Shown here: positions 3,857 through 27,256 of the stretch, in pieces
Position numbering within the stretch: position 1 is the stretch's first letter
Layout of the letters: each line of letters starts with the position of its first letter
Source of the DNA: an archaeon
GTDB taxonomy: Archaea > Iainarchaeota > Iainarchaeia > Iainarchaeales > JAAZKV01
NCBI GenBank assembly: GCA_041650735.1
Contig: JBAZKP010000001.1
Span: 240,786-304,785, forward strand
DNA length: 64,000 nucleotides
Reading direction: 5' to 3'
Notes under the pieces: generated by a model
What the model saw: the letters and a program-made list of their open reading frames with translations, nothing else
What the model was told of the DNA's origin: nothing
Database searches by the model: none
Translations under genes and position numbers: made by a program

Positions 3857-4969
3857 TCATTTTTTATTTTTATAATTTAATTCAAACTCTTTCTTAAATT
3901 TCTCAAAATTATTTTCCTTAATCGCAACACGAATCTCTTTAATTAAATTAGCAATAAAAAAAGTATTGTGGTAAGAGAGAAGCATTAAACCATTTTGCTC
4001 GTAAGTTTTGAACAAGTGATGCAAATAAGATTTTGAATGGGATTTGCAAACAAAACAACCACATTCTGAATCAAGAGAAGAAAAATCTTCTTTGTATTTA
4101 CTACGATTAATCTGAACACAACCATTATGAGCAAAAATTTTTCCATGACGAGCCATTCTTGTAGGATAGGCTGAATCAAAAATGTCTACCCCGCGCTCAA
4201 CTAGATTTAGTATTTCAAGTGGAGAACCAACCCCCATCAAGTAAATAGGCCTTTCTTTTGAAACAAATTTCTTTGAAAATTCTGTAACATCATACATTGT
4301 TTTAGGATCCTCGCCAATACACAAACCGCCAAAAGCCAAACCATCAAAATTCATTGCCTCAAGAGCAATAGTGCTTTTTTTGCGAAGGTCAAGAAACGTT
4401 CCTCCTTGAGTAATACCAAAAAGCAATTGATTTGAATTTTTATGAGCTTCTTTGCATCTCAAAGCCCATTCAGTGGTGCGAACCATCGCATCAAAATAAT
4501 CCAAACGAGATTTACCGAAATGCAAAACATGATCAAGACACATAGCAACATCAGAGCCAAGAGAATTCTGAACCCGAACTGCATTTTCAGGAGTAATCAA
4601 ATGAACACTTTTATCAAAAGGATTTCTGAAAAAAACCCCTTTATCTGTTACATGATCAACAAAATCTTCTGAGAGGAGTTGAAATCCCCCTGAGTCAGTA
4701 AAAAGAGATTTATCCCAGCCAAAAAACTTGTGAATACCTCCTGCTTTTTTTATATGCTCAAGCCCGGGTTTTAAGTAATTAATAAAAGCATTAGAAATAA
4801 GGCAATCAACATTCATTTCATTTAACTGTGAATGGGAAACAAATTTTACCGCGCCCTTAGTTGCAACAGGCATAAAAAAAGGGGTTTCTAATTTACCATG
4901 CGCTGTTGAAAGAATACCTGCGCGAGCAAGAGAATTTTTGGATTCGTGAGTTAATTCAAAGCAAGACAT
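3857..4969 (-). CDS. tgtA: tRNA-guanine transglycosylase (archaeosine type, catalytic domain only)
   Basis: ETPFFMPVATKGAVKF and LMGVGSP motifs, Zn site CGCFVCKSH..H. Start reassigned to ATG 4969 (MSCFELTHES..) because the ORF-track extension to 5113 runs through the SRP RNA gene. Confidence 0.8.
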   Translation of the reverse strand: MSCFELTHESKNSLARAGILSTAHGKLETPFFMPVATKGAVKFVSHSQLNEMNVDCLISNAFINYLKPGLEHIKKAGGIHKFFGWDKSLFTDSGGFQLLSEDFVDHVTDKGVFFRNPFDKSVHLITPENAVRVQNSLGSDVAMCLDHVLHFGKSRLDYFDAMVRTTEWALRCKEAHKNSNQLLFGITQGGTFLDLRKKSTIALEAMNFDGLAFGGLCIGEDPKTMYDVTEFSKKFVSKERPIYLMGVGSPLEILNLVERGVDIFDSAYPTRMARHGKIFAHNGCVQINRSKYKEDFSSLDSECGCFVCKSHSKSYLHHLFKTYEQNGLMLLSYHNTFFIANLIKEIRVAIKENNFEKFKKEFELNYKNKK

Positions 4970-5020
4970 ACCAATTACTGAAACAAGTAGTCTTTTAATT
5001 ATTTCAAACCAAGAATATAT

Positions 5021-5292
5021 TGGACTAGGCCGGGCCGCCAGCGGTGGCTTGTAACCGGAAACCCGCTTCATGCCGGGGCCGAAGCTGGAAAAGAGGTTTT
5101 GATGTTTTTGCACTGAAAGTGCTGGTGGCGTCGAAGCTCTGTCCTTACAGGCCTTTCTGTGAAACGAACCCCGCCAGGGCAGGAATGCAGCAACGGTAAT
5201 TTTATTGAAGAGCGCTGAAGGGAAACGGAGTGGAGTTACTAGTACTCCAACAGTGCATTTACTAGAAATCCATTTCCCGGCACGTCCTTTTT
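5021..5292 (+). ncRNA. ffs: Signal recognition particle 7S RNA
   Basis: GC-rich island in an AT-rich genome. Helix-8 motif GCCAGGGCAGGAAUGCAGCAACGGUAA (GNAR-closed hairpin with AGG/AGCA loop). Alu-domain UGUAACCGGAAACCCG. Helix-6 hairpin GCACUGAAAGUGC. Ends in CCUUUUUC oligo-T with a TATA-like box upstream. Boundaries are approximate. Confidence 0.6.
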
Positions 5293-5428: not shown

Positions 5429-5614
5429 ATGGTTTTTGAGAAAAAAATGTCCGTAAAAGACTTAATAGAACAAATGAGGGAAGAACTAAAAAAAGAGCAA
5501 GAAGAATCAAGAATGCTTGAAACCCCCTCAAGAAGAAAAAGCACAAAAAAAGCTTCAAAAACAAAAACTAAAGCAAAAAAGAAACAAAAAAAGAAAGGAA
5601 AAAAGAAAAAGTGA
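5429..5614 (+). CDS. Small lysine-rich hypothetical protein (61 aa)
   Basis: ORF preceded by TATA-like GTTTATATATAAAAAAGG about 40 nt upstream. Extremely K-rich C-terminus; no recognisable family. Confidence 0.3.
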   Translation: MVFEKKMSVKDLIEQMREELKKEQEESRMLETPSRRKSTKKASKTKTKAKKKQKKKGKKKK

Positions 5615-5623
5615 ACTATTAAT

Positions 5624-5938
5624 TCACTCTTTCTTATTGATTTCTTTGGAAATTTCTTTTTCAATCTTCTTCAAAACATTCTGAATCGTTTCAAGCAACT
5701 GCCAATCAACATACTCGGCAAAAAAACTCTTTCCATTAATAGTAAGCCTGGCATGAACTTCATGCTGAGCCCTCAAACCACCCTTCTTGTACTCCTTCAA
5801 GGATAATTGAAGCTCAGAATCGGAGCCAACCTTTTTGAAAAAATGCGTTAAAGCTTTTGAAACCAATGCCAAATCAACTTCATCAAGCTCAGGAAATTTT
5901 ATTAACTTCACATTAGGAAACTCTGACAAATTAACCAT
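5624..5938 (-). CDS. Ribosome hibernation factor-like protein (HPF/RaiA/YfiA fold)
   Basis: 104 aa. Pattern ..HEVHARLTINGKSFFAEYVDWQLLETIQNVLKKIEKEISK resembles the HPF core (..A.I...G..L.A....D.Y.AI....DKLERQL.K). Assigned by eye only. Confidence 0.45.
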   Translation of the reverse strand: MVNLSEFPNVKLIKFPELDEVDLALVSKALTHFFKKVGSDSELQLSLKEYKKGGLRAQHEVHARLTINGKSFFAEYVDWQLLETIQNVLKKIEKEISKEINKKE

Positions 5939-6015
5939 AAAACAAACACCTCAAAATACACACTATCTAATTAATGATTCAACGAGTTTAAAAAAAGATT
6001 TGGAACAAGGATGAT

Positions 6016-7776
6016 ATGGCAAATGAAGAAATAACACAATCAGAAATAAAACAAGTATTTGATTATGTTAGAGATAAAAGCAAAAAAAACGGGTTAGAAC
6101 AAACCGAAAGGATTACTGAAGAATTAAGAAAAAAAGACCTTCCAAAAGAATCCATCAAAGCAACAATCTTAATAAAAATACCTGAAGAAAAATTTAATGA
6201 AATAGAAATTAAAGAAAAATTTGGAGAAGAAACCCTCCAAATAATTAAAACAATAAAACAAATCAACACAGTGATAGAAAGAAATTTTGAAAAAATCCCC
6301 TCGGGAACATTAAGCTCAATATTACTCTCCTTATCTCAAAATTTTCAACCAATAATAATAAAAATCGCGCAAGTTACTGATGCACTAATAAACGAAGAAA
6401 ATGAGACAAAAAATAAAAAATTTATAAAACTTGCTGAAGAAATCTACGGGCCATTAGCAACAAAGCTCGGGCTAAATGATTTCGCATGGAAAATACAAGA
6501 TTACAGCTTTAAAATAACTAACCGAGAAGGGTGGGAAAAAATAAAAAAACTAGTGAACAAAACAAGGGCTGAGAGAGAAGCTTTTGTAGAAGAGGTAAAA
6601 AAAGAAGTTGAAACCCTGTTTAAGGACAAAATGAATGTACAAGTAACAGGCAGGCCAAAAAACTTTAAAGCAATATTTGAAAAACTAAAAAAAGTAAGCT
6701 TCCAAAAAATGAATGATATTTATGGAATAAGAATAATCTGCAACAAAGAAAAAGAATGCTATGAAGCACTTGGGTATGTACATTCAAAATATGACATAAT
6801 CCCTGAAGCATTTGATGATTACATCACAAAGCCAAAAACAAGCGGGTACAAAAGCATACACACAGCTGTGAAAAGAGGAAATGATATTATAGAAATACAA
6901 ATCAGAACATGGGAACAACATTTGCGAACATTAGGCGAAAATTACTGGGATTATAAAAGAATAAGAAAAGACAAAGAATTCGAAAAAGAACTCAGCTGGG
7001 AAAGGCAATTAATAGAATTACAGCAAAGCATAGGCAAAGATGCATTTGCAAAAAAAATAACTGGGAAAAAAATATTTGTGTTCACCCCAAAAAATGAAGC
7101 TATTGCACTACCTATAGGGGCAACAGTAATAGATTTTGCTTTTGCAGTACACACAGACATAGGAAAAAAAATGGAAAAAGCAAGAGTAAACTCAAAATTC
7201 GTGCCAATAGAAACAAAACTAAACAACCTTGACCAAGTGGAAATAATTATTGCAGAAAAACCACAATTAAAGAAAAACTGGCTGAACTTTGCTGTTTCGG
7301 ATAAAGCCAAAACAAAAATCAAAACATACTTTGGAATGAAAAAAACAACTTTAATTAAGAAAAATATTCAGCCAACTAATTTCAAAAAAATCAAAATGGC
7401 TGAATGCTGCCACCCCCTGCCGGGAGAAGATGTAATAGGGGTCAAAACAACAAAAAGGAAAATCGTTGTGCACAAAAAAGAATGCAAAAACATCCAAAAA
7501 ATAAGCAAAGACAAATTAATAGAAATCGGATTTGAGAGGGAAAAGGGAAAAACTGAAATAAAAATAACCGCTATTGACAGGCCGGGCTTATTGTCTGAAA
7601 TACTCGCAGAAATAAAACAAAGCAGCGCAACACTTACCAACACAAACTTTAAAATAAAAAAAACGGGCTATGCAGAAGCAATATTTGGGATAGAAATAAG
7701 CAGTTTAATGAAACTAGAACACTTAATAGACAAAATAGAAAAAATACCATCAGTGCAAAGTGCTGAAAGAATATAG
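6016..7776 (+). CDS. Long RelA/SpoT homologue (RSH) with degenerate HD domain, intact synthetase, TGS, CC and ACT domains
   Basis: Synthetase motifs GRPKNFKAIFEKL, DIYGIRII, YKSIHTAV, EIQIRTWEQH..ENYWDYK. TGS motif VFTPKNEAIALPIGATVIDFAFAVHTDIG. CCHPLPGEDVIGV. C-terminal ACT domain. The N-terminal region lacks the H..HD metal motif (RelA-like pseudo-hydrolase). Confidence 0.8.
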   Translation: MANEEITQSEIKQVFDYVRDKSKKNGLEQTERITEELRKKDLPKESIKATILIKIPEEKFNEIEIKEKFGEETLQIIKTIKQINTVIERNFEKIPSGTLSSILLSLSQNFQPIIIKIAQVTDALINEENETKNKKFIKLAEEIYGPLATKLGLNDFAWKIQDYSFKITNREGWEKIKKLVNKTRAEREAFVEEVKKEVETLFKDKMNVQVTGRPKNFKAIFEKLKKVSFQKMNDIYGIRIICNKEKECYEALGYVHSKYDIIPEAFDDYITKPKTSGYKSIHTAVKRGNDIIEIQIRTWEQHLRTLGENYWDYKRIRKDKEFEKELSWERQLIELQQSIGKDAFAKKITGKKIFVFTPKNEAIALPIGATVIDFAFAVHTDIGKKMEKARVNSKFVPIETKLNNLDQVEIIIAEKPQLKKNWLNFAVSDKAKTKIKTYFGMKKTTLIKKNIQPTNFKKIKMAECCHPLPGEDVIGVKTTKRKIVVHKKECKNIQKISKDKLIEIGFEREKGKTEIKITAIDRPGLLSEILAEIKQSSATLTNTNFKIKKTGYAEAIFGIEISSLMKLEHLIDKIEKIPSVQSAERI

Positions 7777-9086: not shown

Positions 9087-9821
9087 TTACAAATTATAAT
9101 CATCTTCAACTTTTCGAACAGTAATACCAGAATCAGAAATCTGTAAAGGATGCAAATCCTCGCTATGCTTAGTAGCACGCATCTTCCTAATATGCAAAGT
9201 CCTATTGCTTTGAGTGCCTATCCCCATGTAATGCAAAACAACAACCCCATCAGCAACAAACTCCTCAACCCCATACTTACCCAACTGCTTAGAATCCTCA
9301 TTAATTTCAGTTGTAAACATAGTTGTAACACCGGCACGGGAAAGCAAGTAAACCATTTTCAAAACAGCCTTCCTTATCTCGTGCTCATTATCAAAATTAA
9401 GCCCAAGCGCAGGAATAGAATCAATAACAACACGCTTAGCCTTAATTTTCTTAATAGCACGCATTAATTCAAGCAATAACTTATCTAAATCAAACCCGGT
9501 GGCAGGAAGAGAAAACTCTTCATCACTTGGGATACCAAGCTTAGCCATGGTGCCATCAACAACTTTCAACAACCCATCATCTTCTAATTTCCTTAAATTC
9601 CATCCAAAACGCAACATGTCCTCACGAATAAGCTCAGGTCTTTCATCAAGAGTCAAATAAACCCCGGGCTCATTAAACTTAGCCCCATTAACAAGAAACT
9701 GCATAGCAAAAATAGTCTTACCAGTACCAGTGCCCCCTGAAATCAAAAAACTTCTACCCTCAGGCAAGCCCCCCTCAACTAATTCATCAAAACCAAAAAT
9801 ACCAGTCTTAACACGATTCAT
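9087..9821 (-). CDS. KaiC-like single-domain RecA-superfamily ATPase
   Basis: GFDELVEGGLPEGRSFLISGGTGTGKT Walker A, 244 aa, KaiC/RadB-like. Confidence 0.7.
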   Translation of the reverse strand: MNRVKTGIFGFDELVEGGLPEGRSFLISGGTGTGKTIFAMQFLVNGAKFNEPGVYLTLDERPELIREDMLRFGWNLRKLEDDGLLKVVDGTMAKLGIPSDEEFSLPATGFDLDKLLLELMRAIKKIKAKRVVIDSIPALGLNFDNEHEIRKAVLKMVYLLSRAGVTTMFTTEINEDSKQLGKYGVEEFVADGVVVLHYMGIGTQSNRTLHIRKMRATKHSEDLHPLQISDSGITVRKVEDDYNL

Positions 9822-12593: not shown

Positions 12594-12755
12594 AAACACA
12601 AAAACCAGGACATATTTAAAAGATGATGTTGAAGAGTATTAAAAACTAAAATAGTTTTTATAGCAAGAATAAAAGAAAAATAAGGATTTTAATTAAAAAA
12701 GCTTTGCAAAAAGAGCTTAATTAGTTAAAATTTACTGTATTTTTCTTTATTTTCT

Positions 12756-12830
12756 AGCGGGGTAGGGCAGCCTGGAGTGCCCGTCGGGCTCATAACCCGA
12801 AGGTCGGAGGTTCAAATCCTCTCCCCGCTA
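12756..12830 (+). tRNA. Initiator tRNA-Met (CAU)
   Basis: AGCGGGG..CCCCGCUA with the A1:U72 pair. Anticodon stem closes with three G-C pairs (UCGGG CUCAUAA CCCGA), the archaeal initiator signature. Confidence 0.8.
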
Positions 12831-13019
12831 TGAGTAAAAATGAGCGCTTTTTCTAAAACTTAACCCCCTTAGTTCCAGTACTGATACAAAGAACAAATAT
12901 TTAAATATTTCGGCAAACAACGAATTATTTAGAAATATTATTACTCTCTCAAATAAACAAAAAATTAATCCTGGCAAAGAAGCTAAAAAATTAACTGTTT
13001 TTGACCTATCACATTAAAC

Positions 13020-13215
13020 AAAAGCTAGTAATTACCAACCATAAAAACAATAAACTCTAAAAAAACTAGGCTCACTTGAAATTATTTACATAAAAAAAGT
13101 CAAAAAACCAAGTAAATACATATAATAATTAAAAATAAAGTAATTACTAGTAATTACAAGTAATTAAAATAATGATAACTCATTACAGTAAAGTATTTAA
13201 ATCATTACAGTCATT
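13020..13215. repeat. Cluster of palindromic (T)AGTAATTAC repeats and CATTACAGT direct repeats
   Basis: GTAATTAC at 13028, 13140, 13150 (variant at 13160); CATTACAGT at about 13183 and 13206. Lies between tRNA-iMet and the first gene of the AT-rich island. Confidence 0.5.
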
Positions 13216-13232
13216 ATATTAATGATGAAATA

Positions 13233-13661
13233 ATGGCAAGCATAATTGACTATATTAAACAAATATTAGGGTTCAAGGCTAAAGAGCAAGGAAAACCTCT
13301 TGCGACAAGCATAGTGAGTGAAACAAAAGTAAAGATAGAAATAAGATCTATATGGGATTTCCTCCAATTCAATGAACACACCCAGGCCTTTCATTTAGCA
13401 AGTGTTATAAGGTTTGATGAATGGGCTGCAATGGATGAAATAAGGAGAAGAATCTTTGAACTCTTCCAAATCGACTATGAAAATGAAAGGAGTTTATACC
13501 CTTATCTTAAAACCATGGTTGATATAGGGTTAATTGAGACTAACAATATAGGGGGAAAACGAAAATGGAGGAAGAAGGATTTACTAATAAAACTTGAAAA
13601 AGAAGAAAAAGAAGCTCAAAAACAAGAAGCTTTGGCAGAAGCTGCCCAAAAACAAGCTTAA
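13233..13661 (+). CDS. Hypothetical protein, possible winged-helix DNA-binding
   Basis: 142 aa ORF downstream of a GTAATTAC palindrome cluster; no family recognised. Confidence 0.35.
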   Translation: MASIIDYIKQILGFKAKEQGKPLATSIVSETKVKIEIRSIWDFLQFNEHTQAFHLASVIRFDEWAAMDEIRRRIFELFQIDYENERSLYPYLKTMVDIGLIETNNIGGKRKWRKKDLLIKLEKEEKEAQKQEALAEAAQKQA

Positions 13662-13878
13662 AATGCATAAAAAAGATAATTTTTACTTATTTTACTTTAA
13701 ATTAACTTAAAACTAAAGAATAAAATACTCAATTTCTTGGACACATGTTCTGGTAAGTAAAAAAGATTAAATTGGTTATTAGAGGCAGTATAACCTATTT
13801 AATTACAAAAATGAGTTATTAGATAGAGAAAATAAGGGAAAAAAACAAACTTATTAAAAAATTTTAATAAAAAAAAGT

Positions 13879-14520
13879 TTAATTTTGATTTAACCCTGGT
13901 TGCGGTAAAGGGGTTTGAGTTCCATTATGTTCAGTTTTCAATTTCTTATACAACTCATAAAACTCTAAAAGAACAGGAGATTGCTGGTAAACTTGTTTAA
14001 ACCAATCTAAATCAACTATACTTTGTGCTTCCTTAACAAAAGAAGCTTTGTAAGTAGGATTAGCTCCCTTTTCAACAATCCTTTTCATTTCAGAAGAAAA
14101 CTTAACTAACCCTTCCTCTCCTTCAACAAACTTCCTTGATAAAAGATTCTCCAGAGCAAGAATTACCTCTTTTTCCTGAATATCCTTTTCATTAAGGAAA
14201 TAAGTGCATTTCCACTCCCCTTTCTGCTGCCAATTATGAGTTGGATTATGGCCTGTTTTAAAAAACTCTTGTAAAGATTGAAAGGCACTAGGGGGAATAA
14301 TTACACAATTTTTGCCAGGCCTAATATAAGGAAAGGTAGAAAGAATACCATTTCTGTGATAATGATAATTTTTTCCTGATGTTTTATACACAGCTTGAGT
14401 ATAACCATAAATAGCTCTGAAAAGCTTTTGATAGGTATAAGAAGAATGTTTAATAGAATCAGGAATTATGAAACGATATTGAACAAAATAACCTCTAATA
14501 GCCACACCCAACACTTCCAA
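13879..14520 (-). CDS. Hypothetical protein
   Basis: 213 aa ORF in an AT-rich island; no family recognised. Confidence 0.35.
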   Translation of the reverse strand: MEVLGVAIRGYFVQYRFIIPDSIKHSSYTYQKLFRAIYGYTQAVYKTSGKNYHYHRNGILSTFPYIRPGKNCVIIPPSAFQSLQEFFKTGHNPTHNWQQKGEWKCTYFLNEKDIQEKEVILALENLLSRKFVEGEEGLVKFSSEMKRIVEKGANPTYKASFVKEAQSIVDLDWFKQVYQQSPVLLEFYELYKKLKTEHNGTQTPLPQPGLNQN

Positions 14521-14692
14521 TAATATGTTATTTAAAATTTTAAAAAATATCTTATGTATATATATTATACATATGTGTTTTTAAATTATAAATTTTTTAT
14601 GTTAATTTTAAATAATGTCCAAGAAATAGAGATAAAAATATTTTTTTTAATAAAAAAGGTTATTTAAAAAAATAAGAAAGTAAGGGGAGGCC

Positions 14693-15010
14693 TTACCTTC
14701 TATAATATTTATATCTTAATTGTGAAGATGTAGGTGCAGGTTCGTTTTTAGAATCATCTTCAACAGAAGGAACATCCCTACTCGAAACAATAACAATATC
14801 TTTAACAGATTTTACATTTCTATAAGGAATGCTTTTTTCGCTTAAAATCTTTTTAGCATCTGACTTTGTTTTTACTTTAAGAGGTTCTGTAGTAATTGTT
14901 TCTAATTTTCCTTTTTCAAGATTTATTATTATATCATAAACCTTACCCTTATAACCAGCCTCTATATCGTAAAGATCCATACCAAAAAGTTTTGACAATC
15001 TAATACTCAT
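14693..15010 (-). CDS. PRC-barrel domain protein
   Basis: MSIRLSKLFGMDLYDIEAGYKGKVYDIIINLEKGKLETI fits the archaeal PRC-barrel pattern. Confidence 0.5.
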   Translation of the reverse strand: MSIRLSKLFGMDLYDIEAGYKGKVYDIIINLEKGKLETITTEPLKVKTKSDAKKILSEKSIPYRNVKSVKDIVIVSSRDVPSVEDDSKNEPAPTSSQLRYKYYRR

Positions 15011-15263
15011 GTTAAATCCTCCCTTTTAATTATACAGGAAACAGCAAAGAAGTATATAAATCTATTCTTAAAAATAAAAAACTTCAAAACAGTTAGAAAA
15101 GCAAACTTATCAAAAATAATAAAGACTATACATAAACAAAGGGTTTCTCATTTAATTAATTTTATTTTTAAATAAAAAAAACCTTTATCTACATAACCTT
15201 TTTTGGGTTTGAATTCTCTTTTGAAGTAAAATTATTGGAAGTATGGAGTGTGTGCCATAGGAA

Positions 15264-16217
15264 TTAAAGCTTGTCCAAAGGGCTTACGACTTTTTTTAAC
15301 TGATCATTTGCAACGCTTGTATAAATTTGGGTTGTATTCAAGTTACTATGACCAAGTAGGGACTGAATATATCTAATATTTGTTCCTGCTTCAAGCAAAT
15401 GAGTGGCATAGCTGTGTCTTAAGCAGTGAGGAGTAACATGCTTGTTTATTCCTGCGTTCTCAGCAGCTTTTTTTACTATTCTCTGCACAGTATCTGTAGT
15501 AATGGATTTTCCATTTTTCTTTGAAAAAACATACTCTGATTTGATTTTTTTCTTATCAAGATATTTTTTTAAATCATGAATCCAATCTTTTGACAAAATA
15601 ATTATTCTATCCTTGTTTCCTTTCCCTGATTGGATTAAAGCTGTTCTCTCTTTCAAGTTTAGTTCCTCAACTTTTAGTTTTACCACTTCTGATACTCTAC
15701 ACCCTGAACCATACATAAATTGAAGCATTAATCTATTTCTTCCAAATTTAGTATTTTGAAACAAAGCACGTATTTCGTCCTTGCTAAGAACTTTTGGTAA
15801 ACTCTTTGCTTTTTTAGGAATTTTTATTTCTTCAAGAATATGCATTTTCAAGTGTTTCTTAAACATATATTCCATAGCAGCATGAACTAATGCTAGAGTG
15901 GCATTAGCACAACCCTCTTCTTTTTTTTTAGCCAAATAACCAATTATATCTTTCTTTTCAAGTGTCTGCACAGGTTTATTGATTGAGTAGAGAACATCCT
16001 TCCCATATAATAAATACATTTTTAGTGTTTTTGAAGAATACCCCTCAATAATTAGTTCCTGTTTAATTTCCTTTAAGAGATTCTCAAATTCAGGGTTCTC
16101 ATTTATAATTTCTTTTTCAAGGGGGTTGCTCTGCGCTAAGGGAGCAATATTACCGGAAGAAGGAAGGGGGGTAGGCAGGGGATGGGAAACATCAGATTCC
16201 TTGTTTTCTTCAGTCAT
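15264..16217 (-). CDS. xerA: Tyrosine recombinase, XerA/XerCD type
   Basis: LMLQFMYGSGCRVSEVVKLKVEEL (box I Arg) and HCLRHSYATHLLEAGTNIRYIQSLLGHSNLNTTQIYTSV (HxxR..Y catalytic box). Confidence 0.8.
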   Translation of the reverse strand: MTEENKESDVSHPLPTPLPSSGNIAPLAQSNPLEKEIINENPEFENLLKEIKQELIIEGYSSKTLKMYLLYGKDVLYSINKPVQTLEKKDIIGYLAKKKEEGCANATLALVHAAMEYMFKKHLKMHILEEIKIPKKAKSLPKVLSKDEIRALFQNTKFGRNRLMLQFMYGSGCRVSEVVKLKVEELNLKERTALIQSGKGNKDRIIILSKDWIHDLKKYLDKKKIKSEYVFSKKNGKSITTDTVQRIVKKAAENAGINKHVTPHCLRHSYATHLLEAGTNIRYIQSLLGHSNLNTTQIYTSVANDQLKKVVSPLDKL

Positions 16218-16300
16218 AACACACTTTAGTTTCTTAAACTTATATTAATTTCGTTAGGAGGCGGCAAGGTTTTTAAGCGCGACAGGGAATATTTCTGTAT

Positions 16301-16555
16301 ATGATGCGAAAACCACAGAAACCTTTAGAAGGAGCAAAGCTGAAAGACACAGCTGACATGGTTGCTTGGAGAAAAGAGTTTGAAAAAATGAAAACTGAGG
16401 ACCACATAAACAAGCTAGCTTCACTTGGGCTTGATGATGAAGACCTTGAAGAGTTCAAGGAAATGAAGTCCGGTAAGAGAAGCATTGAGCAAGAAATGCT
16501 TGGGGGAGAAGAAGTCCCTAGCGAAGAAGTACCAAAGAAAAAAGCAAAAAAATAA
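16301..16555 (+). CDS. Hypothetical acidic/K-rich small protein
   Basis: 84 aa ORF; no family recognised. Confidence 0.3.
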   Translation: MMRKPQKPLEGAKLKDTADMVAWRKEFEKMKTEDHINKLASLGLDDEDLEEFKEMKSGKRSIEQEMLGGEEVPSEEVPKKKAKK

Positions 16556-16618
16556 AAATCCAGGCAAAACTAGTTCTAGAGAGACCCCTGACTGCATTAT
16601 TATTAAAAAATATTTTAA

Positions 16619-17461
16619 TTATTTTTTTTGTGCTTTAATTCCTGAAGAATTTTTGTTATATTTACAATTAGAAAAACCAGCTTCTTCCAGACGCTTAATT
16701 AATAAAGGAAAAAACTCTTGTCCTTTTGTTTTCCCGGGATTAGGGCAGTAATGGTAAAGTAAAGCCCCGCGTTTCATAACCCTAAAAAGATCTAAGTAAA
16801 AGCTTTTTGAGTACAGTTCCTCCCCAAAACTAGTTGTAGGAGGATCATGAAGAACTCTATCAAAATAATTGTTTTCAAAAGATTTAATCCCTTCAAGAAT
16901 GCTGTTATTTACCAGTTCTATTTTGGGATTGTTAAATAGCTTTTTAGAATAAGGATTGTATTCAGCAATCCTCAGAACATTAGAATCCTTTTCAAAGGTA
17001 AAAACCTTTTCAGCCTCCTTTGACAATAATATTGAAGTATAACCAAGGCCGCAACAAGTATCTAAAATGAGGCCTTTCACAGGAGCAATTTCCTTAACCA
17101 TGAGCTCTGCACTTGTTTTTGGGCTTATTTGTTTAAATCGGTGCATAGGAACAGAAGATATTGTAAGAGTAGGCCAGTCATGAGTTGGTTTCAATTTATA
17201 ATAAAGATTAGTATCATTTGAGAAAAAATCTATTGATTTAAGAGTATTGTCTTCAGCAACATAAATAGTGTTTTCTTTTAATTTCTCAAGTTCTTTTAAC
17301 AAAATTTTTTGATTGCACAACAAAACAAAAGGAGGGGTTAAAATAACTTTTTCTTGGCTCTTACCCAAATCCAAACTCAGGAAAACCTGAGAATGTCCAA
17401 GATTTTGAGTGTTTATTATCTTTTCTGCTTCATTTTTTGTTAAAATAGCCCTATCCAACAC
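16619..17461 (-). CDS. Class I SAM-dependent methyltransferase with DPP motif (putative RNA/N6-adenine or m2G MTase)
   Basis: Motif I LDTCCGLGYTSILL; motif IV VLHDPPTTSFGEELY. Confidence 0.6.
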   Translation of the reverse strand: MLDRAILTKNEAEKIINTQNLGHSQVFLSLDLGKSQEKVILTPPFVLLCNQKILLKELEKLKENTIYVAEDNTLKSIDFFSNDTNLYYKLKPTHDWPTLTISSVPMHRFKQISPKTSAELMVKEIAPVKGLILDTCCGLGYTSILLSKEAEKVFTFEKDSNVLRIAEYNPYSKKLFNNPKIELVNNSILEGIKSFENNYFDRVLHDPPTTSFGEELYSKSFYLDLFRVMKRGALLYHYCPNPGKTKGQEFFPLLIKRLEEAGFSNCKYNKNSSGIKAQKK

Positions 17462-17561
17462 TAAAACCCAGGTATTTACCTTTAAAAAGGTTTAAATACT
17501 ACTTTTGCCGCAATATATACTGGAACTGCTTTTTTTAGAAGTTTCCAAAAACTTTGGATAG

Positions 17562-17792
17562 GTGAGCCAAGTGAGTCATGTATTGTTAAACGTAGGTGTC
17601 GATGAAGACTTAAGACTGCAGCTATTGGCTGAGGAACAGAAGATGAGATCTAAACAGCCAGAGGCATGGACTAAGACAAAATTCAGAAAATACGCTAATT
17701 TTGGAAGAAACAGGAAAAAAACTGCTGAAGAAATATTAGGCATAGAGCCAAAACAAGAAAGAAATGTTTCTAAAGTAGCTAAAAGAAAATAA
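17562..17792 (+). CDS. Hypothetical small basic protein
   Basis: 76 aa ORF; no family recognised. Confidence 0.25.
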   Translation: MSQVSHVLLNVGVDEDLRLQLLAEEQKMRSKQPEAWTKTKFRKYANFGRNRKKTAEEILGIEPKQERNVSKVAKRK

Positions 17793-17877
17793 CTTTTTCC
17801 TAAACATTTGATTTATTTATGCATGGGCACTTCATATGTGTCCTGCAATAAAAAATCACTTTTTTTATTAAAAAATT

Positions 17878-18168
17878 TTATTTAAGTACTTCAAGGCTTC
17901 CTTTTCGCCCAGCACTTATTTGGAGTTTCCCTTTGTATTCAGAAACCCATCCATTAGTAATTTTTATTTTATCCCCATCATTGACTTTTTTGTATTCATC
18001 ATTCCATAGGGTTAAGGAAACTTCCTCTCCTGTCTCATCTTTAACTGCCGCATTGCACACAGTTCCCTGTCCGCTTGCAGTAGCAAATGCCCGTGGCTCG
18101 CCTTTAGTGACAACCTCGACAGTAAGTTCATCAAAAGGCATTCTTGGTTTCAAATCTTTTATCATCAT
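17878..18168 (-). CDS. ssb: Single-OB-fold ssDNA-binding protein (Sulfolobus SSB type)
   Basis: IKDLKPRMPFDELTVEVVTKGEPRAF..GDETGEEVSLTLWNDEYKKVNDGDKIKITNGWVSEYKGKLQIS parallels SsoSSB (NLKPNMESVNVTVRVLE..GDETGRVKLTLWGKHAG..GQVYKIENVRVRTFSGGLELS). Confidence 0.65.
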   Translation of the reverse strand: MMIKDLKPRMPFDELTVEVVTKGEPRAFATASGQGTVCNAAVKDETGEEVSLTLWNDEYKKVNDGDKIKITNGWVSEYKGKLQISAGRKGSLEVLK

Positions 18169-18217
18169 TTATATCACTGTAAAAGCAAGACACAAAAACA
18201 TTAAAAAAGGGCTGTAT

Positions 18218-19183
18218 TTATAGCCCAGGAATTTTTCCAATAAGCCCCTTTATCTCACCCATACTTAACGAGTTCTTGTTGCGTTTTGTAAGAAAGATAC
18301 TTGTATTTGTTTTTTTAATCAGTCCATCTTCCTTAGCAAGCATCTTATGTGCATTAGCGAGAGTCTGGCTGTTTTCAGTCCTGAGGATTATTATTATTTC
18401 ATTTGACAAAGTAGTAAAAATATCCTGAATTTCCTTGTTTTTCATTAGTGACTTTATTATTTTTTCTTCTTTTCCAGGCACAGGCTTAATTAGTATAAAT
18501 GCTTTCAAACCCATTTTTATTTCATCATACCCTTTTTGAGTCATATCAGGTATTTCCTTTACAATAACTCCTTCTTTCCAGAGTTTGTTCCACCTGTTTG
18601 AAACAGTGTTCCTGTGAAATTTATATTTCTCGGCGATTTCTGAAAGGCTTATGCAAGGATTAGTGGTTTTTTCATATAAAATAGCACAATCTGTTTTGTT
18701 TAATTTGTAAGGGGGTTTCTTTTTTATTGGAAGGTAATGTCTTTTGTACTCAGTATTAGCAAAAAAAACAACAGTTTCAGTAATTGCCCCTTGAAAAATT
18801 TTTTCCATCATTAGCCCAAATGCGCTTATATTATTTATGCTTGGCCCAAAGACTTTTACCGCAATATCATTTTTCCCTGTGACATCAGCAACAGAAACAA
18901 CCTGGGTGAGGTCAAGCAGCTTTTTAACAAATTTTTCGTACTCAAAACCTTCCCAATTAATACTTAAAAAAACCCATGCAAATTTTCCGATCTTTAGCGC
19001 ATCAAGATTAAGATCATATTTTGTTTTTGAAAAATACCCATCTTTTCGCAATTTTTCCAAAGCATAGCTTACAGTGTTTTTTTTCAAATTCATTCTTTCG
19101 CAAAGAAGACCGTTCTTGCTTTCTAGCCCGCTAATATAAGCCTCTTCAAGAATTTTTTTTCTATGCCCATTAATTCCTTTCAT
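18218..19183 (-). CDS. Tandem-duplicated Lrp/AsnC-family transcriptional regulator
   Basis: Two HTH plus RAM-like units. The C-terminal unit is canonical (LNKTDCAILYEKTTNPCISLSEIAEKYKFHRNTVSNRWNKLWKEGVI); the N-terminal unit is divergent. Confidence 0.55.
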   Translation of the reverse strand: MKGINGHRKKILEEAYISGLESKNGLLCERMNLKKNTVSYALEKLRKDGYFSKTKYDLNLDALKIGKFAWVFLSINWEGFEYEKFVKKLLDLTQVVSVADVTGKNDIAVKVFGPSINNISAFGLMMEKIFQGAITETVVFFANTEYKRHYLPIKKKPPYKLNKTDCAILYEKTTNPCISLSEIAEKYKFHRNTVSNRWNKLWKEGVIVKEIPDMTQKGYDEIKMGLKAFILIKPVPGKEEKIIKSLMKNKEIQDIFTTLSNEIIIILRTENSQTLANAHKMLAKEDGLIKKTNTSIFLTKRNKNSLSMGEIKGLIGKIPGL

Positions 19184-19381
19184 AACAAACTTCTGCTTTT
19201 TTAGTTAAAAAGGCTTTCTTTTACATGCACAAAAGATTAACTATTAATAGTTAATAAAAAAAGCAATATTTAAGGATATTTATTTGTTTGCACATTTTTT
19301 TAAAATAAACATGTGCATTGAGAAAAGAGGTTTAATTAATTTCGGGCGTATCAATATTATTAGGTATGGGAGGTGTTGTAA

Positions 19382-19672
19382 GTGGAACAAAATGTAATGA
19401 AAGGAGTTGCGCTGTTCGCGACGCTCATTGGCGTATACCAATGGCTTGGCCAAGAGGCTAGCCTTTACGATATCATGGTAATTTTGTTTGCAACAGCTCT
19501 CATAGTAAGTATTGAGCTGGAACAAAAACATGATATAAAGAAAAATAATGCACCGGGTGATAACCCTACCCAGAAAGGTTTTTTTTGGAGGATAACGCAC
19601 CCCTTAAGTAAAATGATAGTGCGAGGATACTCTCGCCCTAGTTTGCAACCTTTATATTTATTTTCTCACTAA
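19382..19672 (+). CDS. Small putative membrane protein (two hydrophobic helices)
   Basis: ORF in a locally GC-richer region; weak. Confidence 0.25.
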   Translation: MEQNVMKGVALFATLIGVYQWLGQEASLYDIMVILFATALIVSIELEQKHDIKKNNAPGDNPTQKGFFWRITHPLSKMIVRGYSRPSLQPLYLFSH

Positions 19673-19678
19673 AATTCT

Positions 19679-20299
19679 TTGATTTATATGGGTTTTCTCT
19701 TTTTAGATATAGAGTCTTTTGTTGATCCAGAGGATACTTTTTCCGGGCTGAATCCTTTTCACGAAAAAAGCAAAGTTTTAGTCATAGCTTATAATTATTA
19801 TTCTTCTTCAAGCGCACCAAAACCAGAGCATGTAAAAGAACCGTGTTTTTTATTTGAATGGGAAGCGGGGGAGGAAAAAAAAATTCTCGAAGCATTTTTT
19901 TTAGAGTTAAAAGGAATTTACAAAAAAGATTCTTTGTTGAAAATAGTTGGATTTAATCATCTTGCTTATGATTTAAACTATTTATTTGCAAGAATGTTAA
20001 AACACAAAATTTCTTCCGAAAAAGAATTATTTCATATGCTTTTCACACAACCAAGGCACATCGATATGGCCCAACTAGGGATGGCGGTTTCAAAGGCAAC
20101 TAAACGCGATGAAGATTTTAGGACTATATCCCAAAAAACAATCAACTCTTATTTTGAGATTCCTATAAAAGAAGCAACAGGAAAAGATGTTTCAATATTT
20201 TATTCAAAAAAACAGTACGAGAAAATAAAAAAATATTGCAAAGAAGAATTTACTTTTGAATTATTATACCAAAGCTTGTTAATGTCATTTTTACACTAA
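19679..20299 (+). CDS. Stand-alone DEDD/RNase H-like 3'-5' exonuclease-like protein (PolB-exo/YprB-like)
   Basis: FLDIESF (Exo I DxE) and VGFNHLAYDLNYLF (Exo II N..FD..YL). The Exo III YxxxD motif is not evident. Confidence 0.45.
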   Translation: MIYMGFLFLDIESFVDPEDTFSGLNPFHEKSKVLVIAYNYYSSSSAPKPEHVKEPCFLFEWEAGEEKKILEAFFLELKGIYKKDSLLKIVGFNHLAYDLNYLFARMLKHKISSEKELFHMLFTQPRHIDMAQLGMAVSKATKRDEDFRTISQKTINSYFEIPIKEATGKDVSIFYSKKQYEKIKKYCKEEFTFELLYQSLLMSFLH

Positions 20300-20625
20300 A
20301 AATTAAGGTAATTTTTGGGCGGATTTATTTTTTTAATATTTTTTCATTAAATTATAAGCATTGTCCAAGTTTTTGTTCTAGTTGGTAAAGTATTTATATC
20401 CCTTTAACTCTTATATGCAGGATGATAGTAATGCCTAAAGGTATTGAATTTTCTTGCCAGGAAAGAGAAGTTGTTTTATGCAAAACCCTATGCTCAAAAG
20501 GAAAATGTTTTGACAATGAAAGCGTTGCTTTTGCAAAAAATTTTAAACAATAATTTTTCTGCCTGCATATTTTTTCTTAATTTTAGTAAATCTTGTTTTA
20601 ATTCTTTTCGACATAAGAATATTAT

Positions 20626-21111
20626 ATGAAATTACTGATTACAGGCACCCCTGGCTGCGGGAAAACAACTCTTGCAAAAAAACTTGGGCAAAAGTTAGGA
20701 TTAAGAGTCATTAATGAAAAAGAATTTGCTTTAAACAATGCAATAGGCAAATTTAATGATGAAAATGAGTTGGAAATTCCTTTGAAAGATATTGAGAAAA
20801 AAATTAATTCTTTTTTAAAAAAAAATAAGAATATTATTCTTGAAGGACACGTTCTTTGTGAAACAAAGCTTAAAGTGGATGCAGTGATATTAGTCACAAT
20901 TAGTCCTGAAGATTTGGAAATGCGATTAGAAAAAAGAAATTATTCAACACAGAAGATAATGGATAATGTTTTTTGCGAAGGAATTGATTATTGCAAAAAA
21001 CATGTGGAGAGAAATTATCCTAAAAGCAAAATAATAAGGGTTGTTTCTTCAAACAATCCTTTAAGCACCTTTACTAAAACCCTTAAAAAACTTGAAATGC
21101 ACGCTAAGTAA
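20626..21111 (+). CDS. Fap7/AK6-like nucleoside monophosphate kinase (adenylate kinase isoenzyme 6 homologue)
   Basis: LITGTPGCGKTTLAKKLGQKLGLRVIN..ILEGHV matches the AK6/Fap7 N-terminus (LLTGTPGVGKTTLGKELA..). Confidence 0.7.
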   Translation: MKLLITGTPGCGKTTLAKKLGQKLGLRVINEKEFALNNAIGKFNDENELEIPLKDIEKKINSFLKKNKNIILEGHVLCETKLKVDAVILVTISPEDLEMRLEKRNYSTQKIMDNVFCEGIDYCKKHVERNYPKSKIIRVVSSNNPLSTFTKTLKKLEMHAK

Positions 21112-21191
21112 GTGCTTTTTGGTTTTTTTTGGCTTCTTGTGAATGTTTTAAAACTTATTTTAATACTAATGCTTTTGAATAGAGTGATAAA

Positions 21192-22358
21192 ATGGCTGTT
21201 TTGAGGATTTATTGTATTCTACTGCTTATTATCCTGTTTTTGACTGTAGGGTTTGCTTATGAAAAACCCTTGTCAGAATTTGGGTTTTCAGGGTTAACCC
21301 TTGAAAAAGAGAATACTAAGGAATGCAACGAAATTAATGTTTTGTTGCCAGAATTAGCAATAGCTGAAAAAGGAGCAGGAATCCTTTCCTTAGATGTGAA
21401 TTTTACAGAATACCAAGATGACAGTTCGTATGTAACTGTTTCAATTAATGACTCTACAGAAAAAGTATTGTGGCCTGAGAACTTTTCCTGCACCCAAAAT
21501 TGTTGGGCAAGAATATTTATTCCTGATATTAAGGAGAAAGAAACAAAAATAAAGTTATGTGCGGTTCTTGGAGGGCTAACAAAAAAATTAGAAATTACCT
21601 CAAACACTTTTATAGGAATTTATGACACCCCTATACTAAGCATAGAAAATGAATCCCCTTCAGAGATATTTTTAGGGGATAGAGCAAAAATGAGTATTAT
21701 TGTATCAAACACAGGCACAAAAGCATCAAGTATAATGGTTCAGTTTGTTCACCCTGATACAAGAGCAAAAGTAGAAATAACAAGCTTTGACATAGTTGAA
21801 GGGGATTCAAGTGCCTCAACCATTATTAATCCAGGAGAAACAAAACAATTTGATTATTACATTAAACCAACAGTCATAAGCTCTTATAACTTGCCCTCTG
21901 CAGCATTATTTTTTACAAATGTTTTTGGGGAAAAACAAACAATAATCAGCAATCATCCTCAAATGAATGTTGTAAAATTAACAAAAATAAATGTTTCAAT
22001 AGTGGCTATTTCAGAGCAAGAACCAGTTACATTTAAAGCAATAATAAAAAATAATTTGCCAGACCAGTTTAATGGAAATATAATTTTTGCCCCCCAAACA
22101 GCGTTTACTGAATCTGTAAGACAAGTAACAATACAAGGAAATAGTGAAAAAGAAGTAGTATTTGAAGCAAAAGACTTACAACCAGGGAAATATTCATTTT
22201 TTGCAACAATAAAGGATTCAAATGATATTTATTCTTCAAACAAAATAGAGTTAGAATTAAGACAAACAGGAATTCCTTTTGAAGTACTATTCGCAATTTT
22301 AGGAATAATCACAGGGGTAGTAATTTTTGCTTGGATATATTTTGTAAAAGAAAAATAA
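21192..22358 (+). CDS. Secreted surface protein with signal peptide, beta-rich domains and C-terminal TM anchor
   Basis: N-terminus MAVLRIYCILLLIILFLTVGFA. C-terminus GIPFEVLFAILGIITGVVIFAWIYFVKEK. Same architecture as the 7838–9034 gene. Confidence 0.5.
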   Translation: MAVLRIYCILLLIILFLTVGFAYEKPLSEFGFSGLTLEKENTKECNEINVLLPELAIAEKGAGILSLDVNFTEYQDDSSYVTVSINDSTEKVLWPENFSCTQNCWARIFIPDIKEKETKIKLCAVLGGLTKKLEITSNTFIGIYDTPILSIENESPSEIFLGDRAKMSIIVSNTGTKASSIMVQFVHPDTRAKVEITSFDIVEGDSSASTIINPGETKQFDYYIKPTVISSYNLPSAALFFTNVFGEKQTIISNHPQMNVVKLTKINVSIVAISEQEPVTFKAIIKNNLPDQFNGNIIFAPQTAFTESVRQVTIQGNSEKEVVFEAKDLQPGKYSFFATIKDSNDIYSSNKIELELRQTGIPFEVLFAILGIITGVVIFAWIYFVKEK

Positions 22359-26303: not shown

Positions 26304-26365
26304 GTAGAAGGCTTGCTTTAGTTTATTTAAAAATCTTCATTAAAATTCGACGATTGACTATTTTG

Positions 26366-26707
26366 TTAGTCACTTTCTTCATTGTAGTCTTTTGCAGTTG
26401 TGTTTTGTTTTTCAATAAATTTTTGGGCTGCGCATTCCTGGGAAACGTTTTTATCAGGAAGAAGAGAGTATAGGCATTCATTTTCTTGATTGAGTAATTC
26501 TTTTGAGTATGTGCAATCTTGGCAGGTATTTCCTTGAATAGTATTAATGAGCGGGTTTATCCAAAAGAGTTGGATTAGTATTCCAAGGAGTATTCCTACA
26601 ATAAACAGAATAAAGTAGGGTTTGTATTTTTTAACAGATTTTCCTAAGAAATTGTTTCTTTCAGGAACAAGTTCTTCGTATTCATCGTCAGGATCTTTCA
26701 AGGACAT
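26366..26707 (-). CDS. Small membrane protein with Cys-containing extracytoplasmic tail
   Basis: TM segment YFILFIVGILLGILIQLFWI; same strand and immediately upstream of the giant gene. Confidence 0.35.
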   Translation of the reverse strand: MSLKDPDDEYEELVPERNNFLGKSVKKYKPYFILFIVGILLGILIQLFWINPLINTIQGNTCQDCTYSKELLNQENECLYSLLPDKNVSQECAAQKFIEKQNTTAKDYNEESD

Positions 26708-26980
26708 GCAAAGAATAAAGCTTTTGTGAAATATAAAACTTATTGAAACAAAAATTAGTCATTTTTTTGAAAACTTACTCAATATTGTTGTTTATTTGCA
26801 AATCTTAGCAAGTATACATAAGCCTAACTTTTCTTTTTCTTGCCACCGTTCATTCTTTATTTTGTTTTTAGAAAAAATTTTTAAATATACATAATGCGTT
26901 TTGGTTTGTTTTTTGTAAGGGAAACGTTTATAAAGAAGTTCGGCTTTTTATCTGTTAAAGTTTTTTTGTAGGTGTTATAA

Positions 26981-27256
26981 ATGTACAAATACACAATTGC
27001 GAGACAGTTGGCATCAAAGAGGGTAATCACTAATAGGGGGGACGAGGTTGGCAAATTAATTGACTTAATCGTTTCTGAAGTTGGTGGAGACGTAGAGTAC
27101 TTGGTAGTAGAAGTAGACAGAAACTCCCGATTATTGTCAAAACTAGGGAAAGTAGACAAATTGGTAGAAATACCTTATGCGTCCGTAACAGCAGTGAGCG
27201 ATGTGTTCATTGTTGATGAAAGAGAAATCCTAGAAGACATTCAGAAGAAGGAATAG
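26981..27256 (+). CDS. PRC-barrel domain protein
   Basis: RVITNRGDEVGKLIDLIVSEVGGDVEYLVVEV pattern. Confidence 0.5.
   Translation: MYKYTIARQLASKRVITNRGDEVGKLIDLIVSEVGGDVEYLVVEVDRNSRLLSKLGKVDKLVEIPYASVTAVSDVFIVDEREILEDIQKKE

Follow-up and report, generated by a model that had tools for sequence, protein, structure and literature searches.

A compact RelA/SpoT homologue and a putative HibA-type HPF/RaiA-like protein encoded back to back in a DPANN archaeon: a candidate pair of ribosome-acting starvation factors of separate evolutionary origin

Introduction

Long RelA/SpoT homologues (RSHs) and proteins with an HPF/RaiA-like domain are the closest described relatives of the products of two divergent genes, which are the subject of this paper. 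The genes are located in a stretch of 64,000 nucleotides, here called the window (assembly GCA_041650735.1, contig JBAZKP010000001.1, positions 240,786 to 304,785), of a DPANN archaeon of the Iainarchaeota (Diapherotrites). The larger gene encodes an RSH of 586 amino acids (aa) and the smaller gene, on the opposite strand and separated from it by 77 bp, encodes an HPF/RaiA-like protein of 104 aa; both open reading frames (ORFs) and their divergent arrangement had been described in an earlier sequence-only reading of the window and were confirmed. We propose, with a probability of roughly 0.55, that these are two starvation-type, ribosome-acting factors encoded back to back but of separate evolutionary origins: a compact RSH synthetase and a HibA-type factor without CBS domains.

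There are two kinds of bacterial long RSH with which the window RSH can be compared. Escherichia coli RelA is monofunctional ([hS]) and, like the window RSH, has a pseudo-hydrolase, a synthetase with an xFDD motif (active in RelA, predicted to be so in the window RSH), the His and TPK residues of the TGS domain, a RIS domain and an ACT domain; unlike the window RSH, it comprises 744 aa rather than 586, has a longer N-terminus and contains an α-helical (AH) domain (aa 485-580). The window RSH, in turn, differs from RelA in belonging to a clade of archaeal sequences and to a host with archaeal ribosomes. Bifunctional Rel (RelSeq, and Rel of B. subtilis and T. thermophilus) resembles the window RSH in the fold of its N-terminal half and in domain order (Foldseek TM up to 0.76 on the catalytic half), whereas in the window RSH the metal-binding and catalytic residues of the HD domain are gone, RFKD is replaced by AFDD and the AH domain is missing. 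The same gene family has been reported from the same phyla, as DPANN "RelA/SpoT", by Li et al. 2021 (PMC8407392), who found it in 69% of Diapherotrites, 41.7% of Woesearchaeota, 21.3% of Pacearchaeota and 19% of Nanoarchaeota and predicted lateral transfer from bacteria; presence and percentages are given there, and neither the state of the domains nor a linkage to a hibernation factor.

The closest relative of the small protein is HibA, or AHA, which consists of four CBS domains followed by an HPF/RaiA-like domain and is a hibernation factor validated by cryo-electron microscopy, the C-terminal domain filling the tRNA/mRNA channel of the 30S subunit (PMC13324472, PMC12934967). HibA is a 30S-binding inhibitor of translation that preserves 70S ribosomes (PMC13324472). 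Standalone HPF/RaiA-like proteins, mostly from DPANN archaea, have been explained as HibA minus the CBS module (PMC13324472; published 2026). The 104-aa protein has a domain homologous to that of HibA (E 1e-13 to 1e-19), and in one related locus a HibA gene is its positional equivalent, but it lacks the CBS module and hence the AMP sensor and the contacts with the 50S subunit. Bacterial short HPF/RaiA (YfiA, PF02482) is likewise a single domain of similar size and the same fold, from which the 104-aa protein differs in a sequence that stays under the Pfam threshold and in a putatively archaeal-type loop.

Both RSHs and HPF/RaiA-like genes have thus been reported from DPANN archaea (PMC8407392, PMC13324472). 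The sequence-only reading held long RSHs to be very rare in archaea, which is contradicted by the published percentages and by the more than 110 full-length archaeal RSH clusters found here. It also held an archaeal HPF partner to be undescribed; fused and standalone HPF/RaiA-like proteins were published in 2025-26 (PMC13324472, PMC12934967), although a pairing with an RSH is not mentioned there. No link between RSH and HibA/HPF in archaea was found in the literature, the coverage of which is incomplete, so that this absence is no proof. In bacteria, hpf is transcriptionally induced by (p)ppGpp, and the (p)ppGpp system has been stated to be absent from Archaea (PMC12934967); for the window pair such a link is only hypothetical.

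The compact long RSH

That the larger gene encodes a long RSH, RelA-like in function in that its hydrolase is degenerate and its synthetase intact, is supported by family models, sequence comparison and structure prediction. Pfam recognizes RelA_SpoT (PF04607; residues 212-315, E=2e-28), TGS (residues 353-411, E=4.5e-16), ACT_4 (residues 512-585, E=7e-15) and, weakly, HD_4 (residues 27-153; 35.2 bits against a cut-off of 27.2), and a local HD model matches the N-terminal domain with E=1.7e-17. The score for the NCBIfam model TIGR00691 (spoT_relA) is 358.3 bits, under the trusted cut-off of 499.2; by sequence, the protein is a clear homologue of this family, though divergent and shortened. Its top sequence match in the PDB is E. 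coli RelA (phmmer, E=9e-71), and the best Foldseek matches of its AlphaFold2 (AF2) model (pLDDT 82.1) are RelA, Rel and SpoT; the pseudo-HD part of the model is helical, with a pLDDT of about 88. The motif CC..P.PG..H...C aligns with RelA residues 609-644, and RelA_RIS (PF28438) is detected on homologues of the window RSH.

Conservation was analysed in 112 full-length archaeal homologues. Mean identity to the window RSH is highest in the RIS domain (81%), followed by the synthetase and TGS domains (68% each) and the ACT domain (56%), and is lowest in the pseudo-HD domain (40%); thus, the parts under constraint are those that anchor the protein to the ribosome and those that carry catalysis. 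The synthetase motifs named in the sequence-only reading were all located: GRPKNF at residues 212-217, DIYGIRII at 234-241, GYKSIHT at 277-283, IEIQIRT at 292-298 and YWDYK at 310-314, with CCHPLPGED of the RIS domain at 464-472. At least 90% conserved among the homologues are GRPK (212-215), D234..G238.R239, PK..GY.S.HT (273-283) and E.QIRT (293-298), as are the TGS and RIS motifs, whereas the HD motifs are not.

The hydrolase has evidently decayed. When aligned with bifunctional bacterial Rel, Y..HP is replaced by LEQT, LHDVVEDT by LIK-IPEE, and KLADRLHNMRT by KIAQVTDALIN, so that every metal-binding residue (H, HD, ED, D..HN) is substituted, as had been claimed for H..HD, and these positions are unconserved throughout the clade. 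The charge motif of the window RSH, AFDD, is acidic (EXDD-type, or xFDD) instead of RFKD; we take the former to be the RelA type and the latter the type of bifunctional Rel. In the TGS domain, T357-P358-K359 and H379 are retained, P358 and K359 aligning with RelA P411 and K412, and H379 with RelA H432; H379, T357 and P358 are invariant in the alignment of homologues (A2). In RelA, P411/K412 and H432 hold the CCA end of the tRNA (PMC4974054).

The sequence-only reading had credited the protein with all domains of a long RSH. This is so for the pseudo-HD, synthetase, TGS, RIS and ACT domains but not for the AH domain: query residue 440 corresponds to RelA 497 and query residue 461 to RelA 609, so that the approximately 111 RelA residues in between (498-608) are replaced by 20. 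The spacing between the TGS His and the CC of the RIS domain is 91 aa in the window RSH and 90-107 aa in archaeal RSHs, compared with 161-210 aa in 64 bacterial RSHs, and PF19296 is absent from the archaeal homologues. In the AF2 model, residues 413-457 form two short helices and a disordered segment. On the evidence of the sequences, all sampled DPANN RSHs are without the AH domain of roughly 100 aa.

Origin of the archaeal RSHs

A neighbour-joining (NJ) tree was calculated from 83 sequences (686 columns, 200 bootstraps). The 16 archaeal RSHs in it are monophyletic (199/200) and nested among bacterial Rel, and the RSHs linked to HibA or HPF-like genes form a monophyletic subgroup (200/200). 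RelA-type sequences from two other loci (L016 and L059) fall outside the archaeal clade. Because the archaeal RSHs form a clade of their own, the hydrolase of the window RSH decayed independently of that of proteobacterial RelA; the window RSH is RelA-like, as had been stated, in its intact synthetase and dead hydrolase, that is, in function, and does not belong to the proteobacterial RelA subgroup. Basal among the archaeal sequences is an RSH from a woesearchaeote (L012), in which the HD motifs and RFKD are still intact. Taken together with the tree, this is consistent with a bifunctional Rel having been acquired once, probably followed by loss of the AH domain and then by decay of the hydrolase.

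Phylogeny had been suggested as a means of identifying the bacterial donor. It places the archaeal RSHs within bacterial Rel but does not resolve the donor clade: the nearest neighbours in the NJ tree are a mixture of Aquificota, Deferribacteres-like and deltaproteobacterial sequences, with identities of only 28-35%.

The small HPF/RaiA-like protein

The description of the 104-aa protein as HPF/YfiA-like holds for its fold; its sequence does not reach the threshold of the Pfam family, a point to which we return below. The AF2 model (pLDDT 83.9) has the HPF/RaiA fold, and its first 31 Foldseek matches in the PDB are all HPF, YfiA, RaiA or pY (TM 0.55-0.73). TIGR00741 matches with E=0.017. A sequence search of the PDB with the profile of the family returned nothing significant, bromodomain proteins being the best matches (E=0.05), with RaiA (8rd8_D) at E=0.77; the HPF identity was resolved by comparison of folds only.

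A profile search of 1.8 billion representatives found 190 relatives. Among the best 149 of these, 58 have four CBS domains N-terminal to the HPF-like domain and 73 match S30AE at E<0.01, the lowest E-value being 6.6e-7, from which it follows that none of the 149 is a canonical bacterial HPF. The nearest relatives are the C-terminal domains of archaeal CBS-HPF proteins (HibA; E 1e-9 to 1e-13), and residues 273-372 of the HibA encoded in locus L099 are 30% identical to the 104-aa protein (BLASTP, E=1e-19), which itself has no CBS match. Between strands β2 and β3 there is a conserved loop, KKGGLRAQHE (Y50-KKGGLRAQ-H59), which may correspond in position to KFRGVHL of P. abyssi HibA, in the archaeal-specific insertion between HPF strands 2 and 3. 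In HibA this insertion contacts uS12 (PMC13324472). By homology and fold, the 104-aa protein should be a CBS-less protein of the HibA type, in the standalone HPF/RaiA-like class of PMC13324472, with a predicted role in hibernation. A pattern scan of metagenomes for the small protein found 6 loci. A chance ORF was considered and was ruled out by 17 close clusters, the profile relatives and the confident fold.

These relationships bear on the origin of the pair. The sequence-only reading suggested an alarmone-hibernation module acquired as a whole by lateral transfer from bacteria, and this could be argued from the bacterial type of the RSH clade, from the transfer predicted for DPANN RelA/SpoT (PMC8407392) and from an HPF fold common to bacteria. 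We regard joint acquisition as scarcely credible, since the two genes do not share an origin: the RSH is nested in bacterial Rel, whereas the small protein derives from archaeal HibA, matching the bacterial-based Pfam model with E=2e-3 but the archaeal CBS-HPF proteins with 1e-9 to 1e-13, and having no canonical bacterial HPF among its best 149 relatives. In L099, its position is held by a HibA with four CBS domains, an architecture specific to archaea, and the basal archaeal RSHs have no HPF-like neighbour. Finally, the archaeal-type HPF profile has no match in at least 64 bacterial rel loci, on which no bacterial HPF model was run.

Conservation of the gene pair

There are 20 informative loci, i.e., loci with enough flanking sequence (the window, L001-L006, L081, L084, L086-L092, L094, L096 and L098/L099). 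In all 20, the RSH gene is divergent from an HPF-like or HibA gene, which either adjoins it directly or is separated from it by a gene for triosephosphate isomerase (TIM). In clade A (RSH at least 50% identical to that of the window), the two genes are directly adjacent and 61-171 bp apart. In L099, the RSH of which is 36% identical to the window RSH, the position opposite the RSH that corresponds to that of the window HPF-like gene is held by a gene for a full HibA with four CBS domains. Thus, the window HPF-like gene is the positional descendant of a HibA gene, and the arrangement independently supports the published scenario in which standalone HPF/RaiA-like proteins arose by loss of the CBS domains. 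As a single clade (200/200) comprises the RSHs of every linked locus, the pairing has one origin, which is older than the loss of the CBS module.

In two loci the RSH gene is interrupted. In L098 (3356-5139) it consists of two ORFs, of 444 and 125 aa, whereas the near-identical L099 has an intact gene for 611 aa; the two parts in L094 measure 434 and 155 aa. Either frameshifts were introduced during assembly or these genes are turning into pseudogenes. Another locus, L006 (JAFCCG010000019.1), was deposited as "Chloroflexi bacterium" and encodes RadA, the KaiC-like ATPase, TIM and an archaeal RSH without AH domain, together with the HPF-like and the Lys-rich protein; it appears to be a contig of the Iainarchaeota that was assigned to the wrong bin.

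Competing explanations

Several observations weigh against the proposal of two starvation-type factors and are gathered here. The first group concerns the identities of the proteins. The 104-aa protein matches PF02482 (Ribosomal_S30AE) with E=0.0023 and 19.1 bits, under the gathering cut-off of 23.7. In the RSH, AAHWxYK is replaced by ENYWDYK with a deletion of two residues, and the Asn of PKxNGY by Ser (PKTSGYKS for PKxNGYQS). As these substitutions lie by the acceptor-nucleotide site, they could indicate that the RSH, instead of synthesizing (p)ppGpp, makes (p)ppApp, pyrophosphorylates tRNA in the manner of toxSAS and CapRel, or binds ribosomes without catalysis; that CapRel is among the distant structural matches, and that no partner hydrolase was found in the window, would suit this explanation. 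We consider it improbable. The catalytic core described above (GRPK, D..G.R, E.QIRT and the Y and H of GY.S.HT) is kept in at least 90% of the homologues, the best matches in structure and in sequence are long Rel and RelA rather than toxSAS, and the Asn position is variable in bona fide bacterial Rel too (e.g. ESLYQS in L015).

The main gap of the proposal is the degradation of the alarmone. The HD domain of the RSH is itself dead, no second RSH-type HD or synthetase domain was found in the window by profile search, and there are no HD, Nudix or PPX candidates among the 20 further window ORFs annotated with Pfam. In bacteria, a synthetase is toxic if no hydrolase accompanies it (PMC3153485).

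A separate observation was made on the contig of P0150 (ENA ERZ27297570), in which the gene for a more distantly related standalone HPF-like protein directly follows, on the 3′ side, two genes for NUDIX hydrolases. Some bacterial NUDIX enzymes are able to degrade (p)ppGpp. These neighbours may bear on the missing alarmone hydrolase.

The second group of contrary observations concerns the adjacency of the genes. In clade B (RSH about 40% identical), the two genes are separated by one for TIM, a housekeeping enzyme, which has the same direction as the HPF-like gene and also intervenes in L098 and L099, where the layout is KaiC-RSH <-> TIM-HibA with a full CBS-HPF protein of 377 aa. No HPF-like gene was found within 6 kb of the more distant DPANN RSHs (L007-L012, L023, L036), and standalone HPF-like genes outside the lineage occupy other contexts. 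Over the same loci the surrounding block of RadA, SRP RNA, the KaiC-like ATPase, aTrm56 and TFE-α is syntenic as well, keeping its order even where the RSHs are only 36-40% identical; because of this wider synteny, a functional coupling of the pair is only inferred. Moreover, all sequences analysed derive from metagenome-assembled genomes (MAGs).

The observations on gene order suit an explanation in which both genes are correctly identified but are neighbours by inherited synteny in a compact genome, with no regulatory or mechanistic link. This is quite possible, though we would not bet on it. The pair has outlasted two rearrangements, namely the loss of TIM and the insertion of a CARDB gene between the RSH and the KaiC-like ATPase; it is present in every informative locus; and both families act near the ribosomal A site under starvation. 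If the genes are uncoupled, the locus holds two gene families, both already reported, as chance neighbours.

Proposed mechanism

From what is shown above on the identity of the proteins, the state of their domains, their conservation, the synteny and the order of events, we infer an enzymatic product, ribosome dependence, 30S binding and a regulatory coupling for the proposed pair of starvation factors. Since the synthetase half is intact and has an acidic xFDD motif, and the hydrolase is dead, the RSH, of bacterial ancestry, should be a one-way (p)ppGpp synthetase, the hydrolase half of which would persist as a catalytically dead scaffold. It would dock at the A-site finger/uS19 bridge via its RIS and ACT domains, as RelA does, and has most likely retained the sensing of deacylated tRNA on the ribosome. 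The bacterial AH domain packs on the body of the tRNA; in the window RSH, the TGS domain would read the uncharged CCA end without this contact.

The 104-aa protein, by analogy with HibA and bacterial RaiA, would plug the decoding centre and the mRNA/tRNA channel of the 30S subunit and so store idle ribosomes. Because the AMP-sensing CBS module has been lost, its action would depend on how much of it is present or on some other signal. The history of the locus began with the ancestral arrangement RSH <-> TIM-HibA, from which the CBS module was lost first; TIM then moved away, which left the divergent pair with 77 bp between the genes.

The two factors might be coupled through a shared promoter region, through expression or binding driven by the alarmone, or through feedback or mutual exclusion at the A site; in the feedback variant, a 30S subunit occupied by the hibernation factor would exclude A-site tRNA. 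A stronger version, in which the RSH alarmone is wired into the HibA pathway so that (p)ppGpp or a related nucleotide controls the expression or ribosome binding of the CBS-less HibA and thereby replaces the AMP sensor, is speculative and we think it unlikely; if true, it would represent the first circuit of a stringent-response type in Archaea.

Significance

Three features seem to be new: a single clade of DPANN RSHs that lack the AH domain and in most of which the hydrolase is dead; the pairing of RSH with HibA or an HPF-like protein throughout one monophyletic lineage, older than the loss of the CBS domains; and a conserved Lys-rich mini-protein that flanks the pair. Whether a stringent response exists in any archaeon is an old question, for which the locus gives a concrete, cloneable test case. 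In the archaeal RSHs, the synthetase, tRNA-CCA and ribosome-anchoring motifs have been strongly constrained while the hydrolase decayed, and the natural variant without the AH domain offers an experiment on the parts of RelA that the sensing of ribosome and tRNA requires. The L099 contig provides positional evidence that standalone HPF/RaiA-like proteins originated by loss of the CBS domains.

Features of the locus, neighbouring genes and host

The coordinates of the features are listed in Table 1. On the RSH side of the intergenic region there is a TATA-like sequence, gtttaaaaaaag, and on the side of the HPF-like gene a Shine-Dalgarno sequence, GAGGTG; both are repeated in the orthologous intergenic regions (61-171 bp) of clade A, and the former may be a promoter element of the RSH gene.

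Table 1. Features of the RSH/HPF-like locus and of other parts of the window (positions are those of the window)
Feature	Position	Strand	Description and basis
TGT ORF	3857..5113	-	418 aa; GTG start; called mechanically
Archaea_SRP RNA	5018..5291	+	127.7 bits
Lys-rich mini-protein	5429..5614	+	61 aa, pI 10.4; convergent with the HPF-like gene, ends 10 nt away
Standalone HPF/RaiA-like protein	5624..5938	-	104 aa; AF2, Foldseek, profile relatives
Divergent intergenic region	5939..6015	.	77 bp
Shine-Dalgarno GAGGTG	5947..5952	-	8 nt ahead of the HPF-like ATG
TATA-like gtttaaaaaaag	5986..5997		about 25 nt ahead of the RSH ATG; sequence
Compact long RSH	6016..7776	+	586 aa; pseudo-hydrolase, synthetase, TGS, RIS and ACT, without AH domain
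Pseudo-hydrolase (HD-like)	6037..6621	+	residues 8-202; all-helical; catalytic H, HD, ED, D..HN gone
(p)ppGpp synthetase domain (predicted)	6640..6954	+	residues 209-313; RelA_SpoT E=2e-28; motifs
TGS	7069..7251	+	residues 352-412; alignment to E. coli RelA
Short linker in place of AH domain	7252..7386	+	residues 413-457; alignment, spacing, model
RIS / zinc-finger	7387..7485	+	residues 458-490 (C464, C465, H486, C490); aligns to RelA 609-644
ACT/RRM	7546..7770	+	residues 511-585; ACT_4 E=7e-15; alignment to RelA 609-740
KaiC-like ATPase	9087..9821	-	single domain, about 245 aa
Possible integrated element	~12750..27000		
tRNA-Met	12755..12831		within the possible element
Tyrosine integrase	15264..16217	-	within the possible element
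1314-aa ORF	22359..26303	-	within the possible element; no Pfam match

The archaeal nature of the host, as already noted in the sequence-only reading, is evident from the SRP RNA and from the genes for RadA, archaeal TGT, aTrm56 and TFE-α; a KaiC-like ATPase is also encoded. The 104-aa protein is identical to NCBI "MAG: archaeon WC462_01495", and near relatives of both proteins carry the names Candidatus Forterrea, Iainarchaeum and Diapherotrites, Candidatus Forterrea being a member of the DPANN phylum Iainarchaeota. That the contig is a bacterial contaminant was considered and is ruled out by the SRP RNA, RadA, aTrm56 and TFE-α on the same contig.

Downstream of the HPF-like gene lies the gene for the Lys-rich mini-protein, which has no match in Pfam or NCBIfam. 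A profile search found 54 such proteins of 51-79 aa, the named sources of which are all archaeon, Diapherotrites or Iainarchaeum MAGs, and the gene is in the matching position in 17 related loci, clade B included. A conserved N-terminus, MVFEKKMSVKDLIEQMR.EL, precedes a poly-Lys tail of varying length. The mini-protein might belong to the cluster as a third component, one that binds nucleic acid or the ribosome.

On the other side, a gene for a single-domain KaiC-like ATPase is a constant neighbour of the RSH gene (L005 7686-8426, L096 1564-2304 and L099 2515-3252, as well as in the window). In clade B and L099 it lies directly 3′ of the RSH gene in the same direction, with gaps of 51-62 nt, and may form an operon with it there. 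In clade A a gene for a CARDB-domain surface protein has been inserted between the two, and the orientation of the ATPase gene varies.

As called mechanically, the TGT ORF extends into the SRP RNA gene, which is encoded on the opposite strand. The true start of the ORF is probably an internal ATG near 4969, because some orthologues comprise 377-378 aa. Further along the window there is a possible integrated element, which would include the tRNA-Met gene, the tyrosine integrase gene and the 1314-aa ORF listed in Table 1; its GC content is mostly 0.27-0.30 (0.34 at 16-20 kb), compared with 0.34-0.37 in most other parts of the window.

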